Virus record (IMG/VR): IMGVR_UViG_3300024259_000033
Coordinates: 1-60,032 of that record
Length of the DNA: 60,032 bases
DNA from: a virus
Lineage: Duplodnaviria > Caudoviricetes
Reading direction: 5' to 3' (one strand)
Shown: positions 38,016 to 57,320 of the stretch, piece by piece
Layout: every line of letters starts with the position of its first letter
Numbering within the stretch: the first letter of the stretch is position 1
The notes under the pieces: generated by a model
What the model saw: only the letters and a program-made list of their open reading frames with translations
Databases searched by the model: none
Told to the model about the DNA's origin: nothing
Program-made: the position numbers and the translations under genes

Positions 38016-38273
38016 CCTTTCAACTTACTTGATACTTAATATAATATATTATAAGCAGTGACTAGCCTTTATAGTAAAAGTAGCCAAGCCACTTATAGCG
38101 TGTTTTAATACTACATACTACATACTATTGCAATATCAGCACCAACCATCAGTTATAACGCCCGACTATGCGACCTATTCGGAAGGCATCCGCCAACTAT
38201 TCTATAAGAAGTTAGCAACTTGTTAAGTATTGGTTTAGTAATGATCTAAACGATACCCCTCTAAGAATTCTAA

Positions 38274-38394
38274 GCCAAATTTAGGATTTGAACCTAAATC
38301 TCTAATCTAAAGAATTAGTAATTTGAATCTAAAGAATTAGTAATTTGAACCTAAATCTAAAGGATTAGTGTGTTTCCTATTACACCATTTTGAC
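38274..38394 (-). pseudogene. Degenerate tRNA with internal tandem duplications
   Basis: Minus strand GTCAAAA-TG-GTGTAATAGGAAACAC (D arm)...TTAGGTTCAAATCCTAA (T arm)-ATTTGGC. The anticodon arm is repeated through 22-bp duplications (38304-38347). Confidence 0.6.
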
Positions 38395-49589: not shown

Positions 49590-49665
49590 ACCAGTATAGT
49601 AGTAAATGGGAAAACGACGGTCTCCAAAACCGATATTCTAGGTTCGAGTCCTAGTACTGGTGCCA
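49590..49665 (+). tRNA. tRNA-Trp(CCA)
   Basis: ACCAGTA/TACTGGT acceptor, CTCCAAA loop, GCCA end. Confidence 0.85.
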
Positions 49666-52090: not shown

Positions 52091-52414
52091 ATGAGGACGT
52101 CTAAAATTAGAGGTCATAAAATATTTTACGATGGTACAGAATGGCGGTTTTGTGATACAAGAAAAGCTACATCACAAGCCGCCTTTTTGTCACGTCCATG
52201 CAATTATTGTAAAAAATATTCTACCAAAGAAGGGTATGATGGATGTTTAGGAACATTAATTGGTATAATGAATGTATGCTGTGGTCATAGAAGAAAAAAA
52301 GAAAGTTATGTTCAATTTTTAGATGGTCATTCAATACATGGTAAAGACGCATATAAAATTTTAAAAATACTTAAAAGAATAAATGGAGGACAAAATGAAA
52401 AAGAAAATACGTAA
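52091..52414 (+). CDS. Cys-rich hypothetical protein
   Basis: RPC..C...GYDGCLGTL..NVCCGH motif. Confidence 0.65.
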   Translation: MRTSKIRGHKIFYDGTEWRFCDTRKATSQAAFLSRPCNYCKKYSTKEGYDGCLGTLIGIMNVCCGHRRKKESYVQFLDGHSIHGKDAYKILKILKRINGGQNEKENT

Positions 52415-53519
52415 ATTGCTATTTGCTTTAATACTATTTTTATGTGTTAATGTATTTGTTGGAGCAGGCTTGCCTGCGACAGCAGAAAGGCAATTAGGAA
52501 ATGAAAAAGAATACATATTTTATGTAATTGGCGATGGGATGGGAGAGGCTCATCTACAATTAGGTAATATTTATAGCAAAGTTGCATATGGAAGTTCGGC
52601 AGTATGGGAATATCCTAGTTATCGTAGTATGTTAATAGGTGGTGCAGAAAGTTCACAGGGTGGTTCTATGTTAGCAACAGGCGAAAAAAATGGTGCAGGA
52701 TTAATTTCTGAACGCAAGGATGGAACAGAATTGATTACTATTTTAGATGTGGCAAAAGAAAATGGATATGCTACTGGTATTGTTACTAATGCAAGTTTAG
52801 CTGATGCTACCCCTGCTGCATTTTATGCACATGCAGACTATAGAAATAAAATGGATACTATATCGAAATGTATCCCTACATCAGAAGTTGACTACTTCAT
52901 TGGAGGTGGAAAGAATTTTCTAGATCGTAACAATATTGAGGGAGAAAACATAGTTAGTGTAATAGATTATGATTTACCTTTCCTTTATTTGAGACATCAT
53001 GAAAAATTTAAGCATTTATATGAGGATTTACCTTCTTTATTAAATATGACTTTAGATGCAATAGATTATTTAAATGATGATAATGATAAGATGTTTATAG
53101 TAATTGAGTCTTCTGCAATTGATGGTGCGGGACATCAGGAAAATGATGTGTATGCTGCGGCAGAAATGAATAGAATGAACTCACTAATTAGAATGTTATC
53201 TTCTTTTGATAATGCTAATATAATATTGACTGCTGATCATGAAACAGGTAATCATTCTATGTTAGATAAGCCTATTGCAATTAATCCTAAAAAAGAACCT
53301 ATCAATTTAATTTCAGCATCTAGAATGACTGCTAAGATTGCATATAATGCGGGATTAAGACCCCATTCTTCAAAACATTCGAGACAAAAAGTCCCATTAG
53401 TCTTATTCTTAGATGACGGCAAGGATGTACATCATTTTACCGATTGCAAATCTATTGTTGATATACCACATGCTATTTGTGATATGATGGGATGGGAAGA
53501 TACTCTAGATAATGATTAA
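52395..53519 (+). CDS. Secreted alkaline phosphatase family protein
   Basis: Signal peptide. VIGDGMG, DATPAAFYAH, IDGAGH, TADHETG metal-binding motifs. Confidence 0.9.
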   Translation: MKKKIRKLLFALILFLCVNVFVGAGLPATAERQLGNEKEYIFYVIGDGMGEAHLQLGNIYSKVAYGSSAVWEYPSYRSMLIGGAESSQGGSMLATGEKNGAGLISERKDGTELITILDVAKENGYATGIVTNASLADATPAAFYAHADYRNKMDTISKCIPTSEVDYFIGGGKNFLDRNNIEGENIVSVIDYDLPFLYLRHHEKFKHLYEDLPSLLNMTLDAIDYLNDDNDKMFIVIESSAIDGAGHQENDVYAAAEMNRMNSLIRMLSSFDNANIILTADHETGNHSMLDKPIAINPKKEPINLISASRMTAKIAYNAGLRPHSSKHSRQKVPLVLFLDDGKDVHHFTDCKSIVDIPHAICDMMGWEDTLDND

Positions 53520-53626: not shown

Positions 53627-54280
53627 ATGAAAAAAACATTATATCCAAAAACAGAAAGATACAATCCTAAAAAGCTAATACAGATTACTGAAAAAATTAA
53701 TGGTGAATGTATTGGTTTTGCTAAGGATTTAGATGGTAATTTTATGATTATACAAAGGAATAATTTTTTTACGTTATTTTGTAATGATCACAATGAAATA
53801 GATTTTTCTAATGAGTTAAGTGTTATTTCTATTTTATATAAACAACTTCATGACTGGTTATTAGAAAATGGAGAAATGTTATTTAATGAACTACATTCAG
53901 GTTCAGTAATTTTTGGAGAGTGGGTTCATTCAAATTCAGGTACCTATACTCAAGGTCATTATGGAGATAGTTTATTTAAAATGTTTGCTAAAGCAAATAT
54001 AGACGAATATTATATTATAGGTCGTTATAAATATGACCATGACTTATTTAAATATCCATTCATGAATGTAGAAATACCTTCTTATATTGATGTAGTTCCA
54101 TTTATTAATAAAATGCCTATGTGTGCTTTAAGTTTAGAATTTTTAAATCGTTTGTATGAGCGTTATACACGAACATATGGAATTCATGTAGAAGGATTCG
54201 TAATTGAGATTGATGGGATGATAAAAAAGTATGTTCGTAAAAAAGAAAATAAAACTATCGAACATTTTTGGAAAGATTAA
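53627..54280 (+). CDS. ATP-dependent RNA ligase (Rnl2-like nucleotidyltransferase)
   Basis: YPKT, motif I TEKINGE, IFGEW (III), FAKA (IIIa), EGFVI (IV), KKYVR (V). Confidence 0.85.
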   Translation: MKKTLYPKTERYNPKKLIQITEKINGECIGFAKDLDGNFMIIQRNNFFTLFCNDHNEIDFSNELSVISILYKQLHDWLLENGEMLFNELHSGSVIFGEWVHSNSGTYTQGHYGDSLFKMFAKANIDEYYIIGRYKYDHDLFKYPFMNVEIPSYIDVVPFINKMPMCALSLEFLNRLYERYTRTYGIHVEGFVIEIDGMIKKYVRKKENKTIEHFWKD

Positions 54281-54305
54281 ATTTGAAAATACTATAACAA
54301 AATTA

Positions 54306-54334
54306 TTGACTTTTTGTGAAAAAAATGATATAAT
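54306..54334 (+). promoter_or_regulatory. Promoter of the large ncRNA operon
   Basis: TTGACT-N17-TATAAT with extended TG, followed by ~1.4 kb without a credible ORF. Confidence 0.85.
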
Positions 54335-54358
54335 AAGTTATAAAGAGAATTAAAAAAT

Positions 54359-55246
54359 AAATAGATTTGGCAGTTTGGTGTCAACGAAGATAAATATGGT
54401 AACATATGAAAAGATAGTGTGATAAACTATCGCTATGAAAATAGTCTATCCAAACAATTGAGGACAGAGAGCTTCCCCTAATGGGTGCTTGTTTCATTAA
54501 GTGATTTGTGGAACTATAGCCTGTGAAGTTTTCCCAAAATGCGATGGTGTCTTATAATGTGCTAATTGTTATAAGATTATGCTACGTCAGAAACAACGGA
54601 CAGTCTGCGTTTCGTGCTATTATAACGATAGCTAGGGAATTGGTAAAACGAACAGTATCTAGAACTCAAAGACTATAAGTTTGAACTTAATCAGTAAAAG
54701 CGATAGTCAATATTACAAACGGTTTTTGGTTTAGCCTAGAATCTAGTAATATATCATGAGTAAACATGATTGTTGAAAATGTATAGCGGTGTGTTGCATT
54801 TATTATTCGCAAGATAATAAACAACTGTACTGGCACATCGTGTATCAGACCAGATTTGCGTAGGTTCGATCCCTACCTTCCCCACCATTTGGGGAAGTAG
54901 CTCAGTGGTAGAGCATTAGTATTAGAACTAAGTTAGAGAAAAGGTTATAAGCAAAAGACCAGTACATGGTTAGACGAAAGCAACTTAATGCCGTACTTAC
55001 AGAGGAATACGGCTCAATGGATACTGCAAGTTGAAATTGATTAATGGCATTTCTGCACGGTGGGTTCATTACCCTTTACATGCTGACGGTAGGAAATACA
55101 TTGAGTAGTTTAATTAATAAGAGGAGTGCCACTCTTTAAAAAAGGCAGTTGTAAGCAATACCGTTTTGGAACGGTGGATAAATAGAGAATAAATAATTCT
55201 ATAAAAGATGCTTAATGGTAGTTATAATCTCAGACTTTACCTATTT
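54359..55246 (+). ncRNA. Giant structured RNA, GOLLD-like (~890 nt), with embedded circularly permuted tRNA domain
   Basis: ORF-free. 5' AAATAG..AGTTTG pairs with 3' CAGACT..CTATTT. Many hairpins, and size and phage tRNA-array context match GOLLD. The family call is from recalled motif resemblance and is unverified. Confidence 0.6.
54860..54915 (+). ncRNA. Circularly permuted tRNA-like domain
   Basis: T arm GTAGG-TTCGATC-CCTAC, acceptor 3' strand CTTCCCC-A-CCA, TTT linker, acceptor 5' strand GGGGAAG, D arm GCTC-AGTGGTA-GAGC. Confidence 0.85.
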
Positions 55247-55251
55247 CTGTA

Positions 55252-55745
55252 AACAAGTAAATTGCGAAAGCATTTATGAGTTAAAGGAGTTTATGTAAGT
55301 AAACTCCATGATGTCGATGTAGTATGCCTCCACGTGGCGACATTGGGTAATTCTAAATACTATAGGTGAATTAATGACTGAATAATCCTTTTCACGGGAT
55401 AAGGTATGGTAAATATCGGGGTGAAGTTCCCTAATTTGAAATTCGATAGAAATATAAGATGTTAGCCAGTTTCAATATGATTGACCGTCATTAGATAGAC
55501 TAAACGATAGAGAAGCTATGCGGTGTTAAAACTGAATTTAGTTTCTTGCGGCTAGAGTATATCTCGAATGTGGTTTAGGTTGTAATATAATATGAAAGTC
55601 CGCTAATTTTGCAAGTAGTGAATGTATTACTTGGGTAAAACTGAATAACCCTGCTTCTAGTAAGTATCCTATTAATGAATGACGAGCCTATAAAGTTGAT
55701 TGAGAATGAAATTTACCAAATTAATATATACTATTGTATATATCA
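55252..55745 (+). ncRNA. Second large structured RNA (~500 nt), possibly ROOL-like
   Basis: ORF-free. Stems GGAGTTTA/TAAACTCC, ATGTCG/CGACAT, TAATGAC/GTCATTA, long-range TGGTAAAT/ATTTACCA. Ends at a terminator. Confidence 0.5.
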
Positions 55746-55778
55746 GAAATAGTGTATTTGCAAAAGTACACTATTTTT
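55746..55778 (+). terminator. Intrinsic terminator closing the ncRNA operon
   Basis: AAATAGTGTATTT-GCAA-AAGTACACTATTTTT. Confidence 0.8.
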
Positions 55779-55795
55779 ATTTTAAGGAGGAACTT

Positions 55796-56149
55796 ATGAA
55801 ACATATAGTACCATATGGAGTATCTGAATGGGACATTTTATTTGATAATGATATAAGTGTAGAATTAAAACATGTTAAATATGAAACTACAAGTATATTT
55901 GGTGGAGCAGATGGAGAAAGACGTATACAAGTTGATATTATCCATGCATCATTACCTGTTGATTTAATATTGACATTGTTAAATAATAAGGTAAAACAAA
56001 TTAGACAAAAGGTTGTCATACAATCTCTAGAGACAAGTGAGCAATCTACAATGGAAAATTTATTCGATGTTAATACATTTGAAATTGAAATAATTGCTGC
56101 AACACTTAGCCCAGCTGATATTCGTATAAATATTAATAAGATGATATAA
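55796..56149 (+). CDS. Hypothetical protein
   Basis: True start is ATG 55796 after AAGGAGG. Confidence 0.65.
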   Translation: MKHIVPYGVSEWDILFDNDISVELKHVKYETTSIFGGADGERRIQVDIIHASLPVDLILTLLNNKVKQIRQKVVIQSLETSEQSTMENLFDVNTFEIEIIAATLSPADIRININKMI

Positions 56150-56678: not shown

Positions 56679-57320
56679 ATGTCATACATTTATCAGATTA
56701 CCAATATAGTAAATGGCAAGCAATATATTGGTAAAACAGAAGGAACAATTGAAGAACGATGGAAACAACATTGCAAATCTTATAAACGGATAAATTGCGA
56801 AAAACGTCCATTATATTCAGCTATGAAAAAATATGGGTTAGATAGTTTTGTTATTATAAAACTAGAAGAATGTTTGCCACAAGATAGCAATGAAAAAGAA
56901 AAATATTGGATTGAAATATTAGGAACTTTTAAAAAAGGTTATAATGCAACTATTGGTGGAGATGGTGCTTTATTTATAGACTATGATTTAGTAGTAGAGA
57001 ACTATAAACATTTAAAAAATCAAACCAGTGTTGCAGAACTAATGAATATTACAACCGATAGCGTTAGAAAAATATTAAAAATTAAACATATATCTATATT
57101 AACAAGCAAAGAGGTTAATATTAATAGAGCAAATACGATTAATATGTTTGATAAAAACAATAAATTCATACGTAGTTTTGCTTCAGCAAAAGATGTAGGT
57201 AGATTTTTAATTATTAATAATAATTATACACAAGCAAATCTTACTTCAATATCTACAAATGTTGGTAGAGTTTGTAAGGGAAAAAGAAAAACCTGTATGG
57301 GTTTTATATGGGGAATATAG
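56679..57320 (+). mobile_element. Free-standing GIY-YIG homing endonuclease with NUMOD1-like C-terminal DNA-binding domain
   Basis: YIYQITNIVNGKQYIGKT..RWKQH, EKYWI, GYNATIGG, C-terminal FASAKDVGR..IS.NVGRVCKGKRKT.GFIW. Inserted between tRNA-Asp and tRNA-Met. Confidence 0.88.

Follow-up and report, generated by a model that had tools for sequence, protein, structure and literature searches.

The 60,032-nucleotide viral record IMGVR_UViG_3300024259_000033 (Caudoviricetes; hereafter the window, meaning the whole stretch of DNA that was analyzed, with an estimated completeness of ∼40%) carries a GOLLD RNA, and built into the unstructured linker of this RNA is, we conclude with high confidence, a full tRNA cloverleaf whose parts stand in rotated order (54860–54931). 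To our knowledge GOLLD, one of the largest structured bacterial RNAs, has been without a known function since its description in 2009. The window RNA belongs to the family by its Rfam match (RF02032) at 54786–55236, which scores 167.9 bits against a cut-off of 150 and covers model positions 1–416 of 416. The permuted module is an insertion between model positions about 62 and 130, the unpaired stretch that runs from the first hairpin to the conserved AAGCAAAAG. The reading we favor overall, to which we give slightly better than even chances, is of a tRNA body that cannot be released, tethered to both GOLLD domains and nicked to leave a two-piece RNA.

Read 5′ to 3′ on the plus strand, the GOLLD chain enters the tRNA body through TTTGC at the variable-loop position (54855–54859), a motif common to the related locus L120. 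The T arm follows (54860–54876), with stem strands GTAGG (54860–54864) and CCTAC (54872–54876) around the loop TTCGATC (54865–54871), and leads directly into the acceptor 3′ strand CTTCCCC (tRNA positions 66–72; 54877–54883). The acceptor stem is capped by the loop ACCATTT (54884–54890), comprising A73 (54884), CCA (54885–54887) and TTT (54888–54890), which is the proposed cleavage zone. The acceptor 5′ strand GGGGAAG (positions 1–7; 54891–54897) completes seven of seven Watson-Crick pairs, G3-C70 among them, and is separated by TA from the D arm (54900–54914; GCTC, 54900–54903, loop AGTGGTA, and GAGC, 54911–54914). After A26 comes an anticodon-like hairpin (54916–54931; TTAGT, 54916–54920, the six-nucleotide (nt) loop ATTAGA, and ACTAA, 54927–54931), from which the chain exits. 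The original prediction had described every part from the T arm to the D arm, and all of these can be read directly in the sequence. It had also let the remainder of the giant RNA take the place of the anticodon arm; that part does not hold, with a local hairpin present there and covarying. Because this hairpin directly follows the D arm, the break in the circle falls at the variable loop, and because the GOLLD chain both enters and leaves on that side, the tRNA body would not be releasable by tRNA processing.

The ViennaRNA minimum-energy fold of 54844–54948 consists of exactly these four hairpins and a closing helix of only four pairs (z −2.44). Once rotated back to standard order, the module is recognized as a tRNA by ARAGORN run with the default threshold, the anticodon loop having 6 nt. 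In native order neither ARAGORN nor Rfam calls a tRNA at 54845–54935, so the module is not a standard-order tRNA (RF00005), nor does its loop have the seven nucleotides, U33 and conserved anticodon expected of one. The features of a candidate RNase P substrate are all present, namely the T/D elbow, a 12-bp stack of acceptor and T stems, U−1, G+1 and RCCA.

When both strands are scanned strictly for this topology, the window has a single site, and 200 dinucleotide shuffles of the 60 kb have none. A misassembly of two tRNA halves, the hazard named in the original prediction, has practically negligible probability; nothing was found in favor of such an artefact, the same arrangement occurs in 14 other distinct sequences, and the module is not a misassembly since an independent DNA contig from another sample (run X2) bridges it intact, spanning 54830–55068 with 0 differences. 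The stretch occurs in 20 marine or seawater runs from 17 studies, 13 of them RNA libraries.

To find relatives, a DNA pattern was used that combines the T loop, the start of the D arm and AAGCAAAAG; blastn of 54300–55760 against 50,697 phage records gave no match. The same permuted module lies in L120, a viral contig (rumen-type phage) whose GOLLD scores 173 bits, and in Winogradskyella, Psychroserpens and other Flavobacteriaceae, in both genome and metagenome contigs. The flavobacterial GOLLDs (L158, L169) align with the full length of the model at 130 bits (E 1e-34), and are missed by standard annotation because this is below the Rfam cut-off of 150. They are chromosomal (L158, 708–1210; L169, 6298–6797; and relatives) and in several genera keep the same position, flanked by a TPR gene and an SPFH/Band 7 gene. 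In a sample of 81 Winogradskyella genomes, 12 have GOLLD; the T-acceptor-D core is present in 11 of these 12, and in eight the anticodon-like hairpin as well. The exact pattern occurs in two of 401 sampled Flavobacteriaceae genomes, a sampling that does not prove its absence from the rest. With the window included, 15 distinct module sequences were obtained.

Other searches yielded mainly rejected candidates. Looser three-part patterns gave 25 stretches in viral contigs, two of them real (L119 and L120) and 23 discarded as chance matches in coding DNA. A further DNA pattern picked out 18 stretches with no new GOLLD module (L206 and L208 have no GOLLD match; L203 is YrlA-like at 40 bits), and a search in viral contigs through the neighboring ligase gene gave six pattern matches, none confirmed. 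The model R1, run over 120 sources, returned mostly neighboring tRNA gene pairs, and only its stronger matches were position-checked against GOLLD by eye. T-loop-like words in 16 further GOLLD loci proved to be a conserved 5′-domain motif and form no T arms.

Covariation was measured on the 12 of the 15 modules that have all four helices, the three without the last hairpin being excluded. Standard pairs fill 97.0% of 230 cells, compared with 80.0% in shuffles and 35–46% with the partners slid, and double-sided changes are seen in 12 of 20 pairs; none of 500 shuffles reaches any of five measures, although these counts overstate independence because the sequences are related, ten of the 12 closely. 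The T-arm helix is paired in 100% of cells (double-sided changes in two of five pairs), the acceptor helix in 93.7% (six of six counted pairs), the nearly invariant D-arm helix in 95.8% (with a GTTC/GAAC variant in L189) and the anticodon-like helix in 98.3% (four of five pairs), the last count being conservative for the window because the MAFFT alignment costs it two true pairs there. Most stem positions differ between the window, L120 and the flavobacterial group, with pairing kept.

Such conservation bears on whether the module is a functionless relic, in which a linker tRNA was tandem-duplicated and later deletions left a 3′ half before a 5′ half. Permuted tRNA genes are usually explained by tandem duplication, which may well be how this module arose, at a linker where ordinary tRNAs also occur: ARAGORN finds one in three of 117 pattern-found GOLLD loci (L005, L025 and L075), and for L025 and L075 Rfam tRNA matches nested inside the GOLLD matches confirm it. 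Published work likewise places tRNAs in the GOLLD linker in some cases. As an account of the present module, we nevertheless hold a relic to be very improbable: compensatory changes keep four of four helices in three distant lineages, the G+C content is 45.8% against 30.9% for the window, and the module shows no similarity to any tRNA gene of the phage that would make it a recent copy of one of the 16 (best, 55 of 74 positions identical, to a Leu gene of other length).

What is conserved is the body of the tRNA. The T loop, the D loop and their stems are nearly invariant across modules; the anticodon loop sequence is not conserved, and U33 or purine 37 is absent in some modules. ARAGORN at default settings calls nine of nine rotated-back modules as tRNAs, with the anticodons GAT (Ile), TCA (“SeC”), TTG (Gln), TTT (Lys, three modules) and TAA (Leu) and two anticodons of 2 nt. 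The tRNA body and elbow are kept, and the anticodon drifts. The acceptor stem has at least seven contiguous pairs in six of the 15 modules and three to five in the other nine. In three of 15 modules (window, L169 and L181) a 7-nt strand is followed in register by ACCA, which is present anywhere in the hairpin in seven; by our reading, four short-stem modules have it in register with a 6-nt strand. ACC is present in nine modules and ACCA has been lost in six. The L120 module is without ACCA though eight of nine adjacent tRNA genes encode CCA; of the window tRNA genes, 14 of 16 do. CCA is thus ancestral and retained more than the rest of the loop, yet not required.

These figures weaken the CCA-centered functions of the original prediction, in which a free CCA end would be charged, or sensed as uncharged, and the RNA would act as mimic or decoy for EF-Tu, synthetases, T-boxes, RelA or tRNA-targeting toxins. 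The presence of in-register ACCA in three modules and of ACC in nine, though the rest of the loop varies freely, agrees with that proposal, as do the phage's investment in tRNA supply and RNA repair (16 tRNA genes and an adjoining RNA-ligase-family gene) and the gain of CCA in vivo by Mycobacterium smegmatis YrlA (PMC4201824). The proposal is speculation, and we think it quite unlikely. CCA is absent from six modules, L120 among them with its CCA-encoding neighbors; the anticodon loops differ among orthologs, some without U33 or purine 37 and the window's with 6 nt, so the anticodon offers synthetases no stable identity; alanine identity of the transfer-messenger RNA (tmRNA) kind is excluded by G3-C70; the RNA end observed (see below) is without CCA; and the module would sit inside the GOLLD cage.

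The original prediction further held that RNase P would open the acceptor loop. One DNA run (X2) and three RNA runs (X3, X4 and X5, of which X3 and X5 come from the separate studies P3 and P5) cover this region, all as assembled contigs, which are unable to show RNA ends with certainty and to that extent count against our reading. RNA contigs over the GOLLD 5′ domain extend from 54373 to 54884 (X3), 54528 to 54883 (X5) and 54574 to 54872 (X4), and those over the 3′ domain from 54882 to 55234 (X3), 54911 to 55221 (X5) and 54921 to 55228 (X4); the DNA contig continues through. Past 54884 the X3 contig runs on into GATCGGAAGAGCGTCGTGTAGG, which we take to be Illumina adapter letters, and because of this continuation the X3 inserts would have ended at 54883 or 54884. 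The same adapter sign is seen at 55687, the end of a second RNA in three of three RNA runs. None of the RNA contigs spans the acceptor loop with 31 letters on each flank. The stretches without RNA cover (54873–54920 in X4, 54884–54910 in X5) and the contig depths of the 5′ and 3′ halves (14.6 and 12.2 in X3, 16.3 and 6.5 in X4, 51.1 and 11.9 in X5) fit two molecules and are not evidence for them. That RNA contigs stop at one place in two studies hints weakly at cutting of the acceptor loop in vivo, and we lean modestly toward such cleavage.

There is a strong precedent for it. The YrlA of M. smegmatis, the only one whose closed acceptor stem has seven pairs, is cleaved in vitro by M1 RNA at the predicted site, and in cells it is found as two halves that stay together, both Rsr-bound, with the 5′ half CCA-completed (PMC4201824). 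The window module has the same RNase P determinants, plus U−1 and an encoded ACCA. The claim of two-piece processing is partly supported, by this precedent and by the contig stops, and is weakened by the position of the end, short of CCA, and by an X3 contig that covers the loop.

Alternatively, the module may never be cut and may serve as a closed structural mimic of the tRNA elbow like Salmonella YrlA, the contig breaks then reflecting poor copying or assembly over a stable, possibly modified fold. We consider this possible but less probable than cleavage. Acceptor stems of three to five contiguous pairs in nine of 15 modules and the loss of ACCA in six fit a capped hairpin, the T and D arms are the best conserved parts, the X3 contig from 54882 covers the loop, and Chen et al. 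report no cleavage of Salmonella YrlA or Deinococcus Yrn1 (PMC4201824). Against a closed mimic, the window module has every RNase P determinant (seven pairs, U−1, G+1 and ACCA), and in two studies the contigs end no more than 1 nt apart, one running into adapter, at a place where the DNA contig continues; the adapter sign is moreover the one that marks the end of the neighboring RNA at 55687.

Besides the relatedness of the aligned modules, several observations weigh against a tethered and nicked tRNA body. The RNA end at 54883/54884 lies 3–4 nt short of CCA, and the second X3 contig, from 54882, has the loop joined to the 3′ part; either a fraction of the molecules is left intact, or the break has a technical cause, since a stable and perhaps modified tRNA-like fold is hard to copy. 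Only 3 nt separate A76 from G+1, compared with ∼20 nt in two-piece tmRNA precursors (Rfam consensus), and such tight spacing may hinder RNase P. Because only six of 15 modules have at least seven contiguous acceptor pairs, cleavage is not the shared function. Of the typical GOLLD loci in viral contigs, 109 have sufficient upstream sequence, and a script-based count found the module in 0 of 109. In L188, a Winogradskyella-group genome (minus strand), upstream of AAGCAAAAG, an unrelated hairpin replaces the T arm, acceptor and D arm and the anticodon-like hairpin is kept, an arrangement that reads as a natural loss of the module; with the core missing here and the anticodon-like hairpin missing from three modules, the module is dispensable in some lineages. 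Finally, no partner protein was identified.

Under the reading we favor, that of the tethered and nicked tRNA body, the folded L-shape would be recognized and treated as a tRNA by host enzymes. RNase P would cut at 54890/54891 where the acceptor stem is long enough, as with the seven pairs, U−1, G+1 and ACCA here, and the 3′ tail would then be trimmed. Mature GOLLD would be a two-piece RNA, with the acceptor helix and the elbow clasping its 5′ and 3′ domains together. Other GOLLD members form a cage seen by cryo-electron microscopy, and in that published work the linker, not resolved in the density, faces the cage interior; should the window GOLLD assemble in the same way, the module would lie inside. 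Its most likely use would be as a docking or bait site for tRNA-binding factors, not as a decoding tRNA.

In a bolder version, which we hold to be unlikely, every protomer would present one RNase-P-opened tRNA body on the inner face of the cage, its acceptor end free and its body joined to both protomer halves, and the cage would form a multivalent trap or reaction chamber for tRNA-directed enzymes. If true, the cage might, for example, soak up host anticodon nucleases or other tRNA-targeting defense factors, or, in the course of infection, hold CCA-adding, repair or modification enzymes; the standard-order tRNAs found in the linkers of other GOLLDs would then represent this device in a form that can be released; and GOLLD would gain its first mechanistic role, linked to phage-host tRNA conflict. 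Short of this, the linker content can now be named for one set of GOLLDs as a tRNA body wired against release. Because this body cannot be released, we argue that the linker contributes tRNA shape and not tRNA supply, and the data suggest that mature GOLLD can be a two-piece RNA. The idea is open to test by ordinary genetics, since culturable marine Flavobacteriaceae (Winogradskyella and Psychroserpens) carry the module in their chromosomal GOLLDs.

The remainder of the GOLLD RNA can be laid out around the module, again on the plus strand. A putative promoter at 54306–54334 (TTGACT, 17 nt, TG-n-TATAAT; a near-consensus extended −10 with 11 of 12 hexamer matches) is recognized by its consensus match and would place the transcription start near 54341. 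The 5′ (variable) domain would then occupy 54341–54785, from the promoter to the start of the Rfam match. In the Rfam alignment, a hairpin at 54786–54843 corresponds to model positions 1–61, just 5′ of the linker, and the conserved 3′ domain, opening with AAGCAAAAG, lies at 54949–55236 (model positions about 117–416). From this promoter and the Rfam match to 55236, the RNA would be ∼895 nt long, in line with the ∼890 nt estimated earlier.

The genome has the setting expected of a GOLLD, a phage with tRNA genes nearby: terminase and portal genes are present in the window (nearest cultured terminase, Geobacillus virus E3, 47.5% identity), and 16 tRNA genes lie on both sides of GOLLD. No credible reading frame is found in the 1.5 kb between an RNA-ligase-family gene (53627–54280) and the next gene (ATG at 55796). 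Directly 5′ of GOLLD on the plus strand are an alkaline-phosphatase-family gene (52383–53519) and this RNA-ligase-family gene, which encodes 217 amino acids (PF09414, 34.7 bits; phrog_20735). RNase P leaves a 3′-OH and a 5′-phosphate, ends that such RNA ligases can join, and it is possible that the two genes beside a tRNA-like RNA are a heal-and-seal pair. A tblastn search for these neighbors in ∼190 loci gave no match, so they are not recurrent beside those GOLLDs, and no PDB relative of the RNA-ligase-family protein was found by sequence. A GIY-YIG homing endonuclease gene (56679–57320, plus strand) stands amid the tRNA genes 3′ of GOLLD. At 38273–38394 (minus strand), a 122-nt Rfam tRNA match (33.7 bits, no ARAGORN call) is perhaps a tRNA gene with an insertion or intron. 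In run X2, DNA contigs also link the GOLLD promoter region (54303–54336) to other sequence; one loose end resembles the 3′ end of the phage tRNA-Trp gene (49590–49665), as in a variant genome that lacks or rearranges ∼4.6 kb.

Right after GOLLD lies a separate RNA at 55328–55687 (plus strand), covered by contigs at 55328–55688 (X3), 55365–55687 (X4) and 55328–55687, followed by adapter letters (X5). It matches no Rfam family, the weak signals being HDV-like (19.9 bits at 55310–55377) and manA (14 bits), and blastn finds no relative among the collected loci. An AT-rich hairpin and T run lie 3′ of it, near 55747–55785.

Several permuted tRNA-like elements were also seen outside GOLLD RNAs. About 150 nt 3′ of the flavobacterial GOLLD is a second such element (L158, 1356–1420, plus strand; also L169, L183, L190 and L191), comprising a T arm, CTTCCCC, 21–24 nt, GGGGAAG and a D arm with GTTC/GAAC; its acceptor stem is letter-identical to that of the window module, and it scores 35.6 bits as YrlA and 27.4 bits as permuted tmRNA. 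A stand-alone permuted tRNA-like RNA of ∼75 nt lies ∼1 kb upstream of the GOLLD 3′ domain in L024 (5542–5591), L014 (2974–3027) and L063 (2293–2346), all on the minus strand. Its outer 8-pair stem covaries (GTGGGTGT/ACACCCAC versus GTGGACGT/ACGTCCAC), and a T run follows in L024. Further elements outside GOLLD are one in L119 (5256–5308, minus strand) that lies at the edge of a contig and is capped by a TTCG tetraloop, a G+C-rich element in L148 (6508–6613, plus strand) whose loop has 15 nt, and a pair of true YrlA RNAs in L160 (889–1019, minus strand; 76.8 and 77.3 bits). In L120 (972–2417, minus strand) the GOLLD is followed by a tRNA and then by ROOL (327.7 bits), placing two cage-forming RNAs in one tRNA island.

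The literature that we searched does not describe any permuted tRNA within a GOLLD RNA; because the search did not reach the founding paper, the survey of mycobacteria or supplements, an earlier sighting in an alignment is possible. Among known systems, the ordinary tRNAs of other GOLLD linkers keep the standard order, so that tRNA processing could release them and sever GOLLD. In contrast, the permuted body is not releasable, lacks a stable anticodon and remains attached to both domains. Permuted tRNA genes, which occur in red and green algae and an archaeon, resemble the module in having the 3′ half before the 5′ half. Their transcript is circularized and re-cut to a normal tRNA (PMC10085705); the ends of the module, in contrast, are the two GOLLD halves, no circle is expected and the anticodon is not kept.

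The topology of YrlA and of two-piece tmRNA, grafted into GOLLD with a full D stem and G3-C70, had been proposed at the outset, and both the sequence and the Rfam alignments bear it out. Two-piece tmRNA shares with the module the order of T arm, acceptor 3′ strand with CCA, intervening stretch and acceptor 5′ strand, and its precursor becomes two chains held by the acceptor helix (PMC10085705). At this site the tmRNA family (RF04321) reaches 22.3 bits, below its cut-off of 47, which does not make the module a member, and the module differs in its full D stem, its 3-nt intervening stretch and its G3-C70 in place of the G3:U70 of alanine identity. Nor was a tag reading frame seen, although no search was aimed at one. 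The Ro60 and SmpB genes suggested earlier as a check are both missing from the window, a record only ∼40% complete, SmpB in any case being a host gene; a Ro60 (TROVE) gene is also found in none of five flavobacterial genomes with the module.

YrlA (RF02553), the best Rfam match at the site after GOLLD, reaches 28.1 bits (E 0.0016) against a cut-off of 69, compared with 76.8 bits for a true YrlA of L160. YrlA RNAs, which are also found in phages (PMC4201824), have the same order of T arm, capped acceptor stem and D arm and the same tRNA-like elbow residues. The module lacks the Ro60-binding stem; where the flanks of YrlA pair in place of an anticodon stem, it has a local anticodon-like hairpin, and its own flanks are the two domains of a ∼895-nt GOLLD RNA. 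Considered together, these comparisons identify the module, on sequence grounds, as a YrlA-type tRNA mimic without Ro60, rather than a decoding tRNA or a tmRNA, and they link GOLLD to the YrlA class of tRNA mimics.

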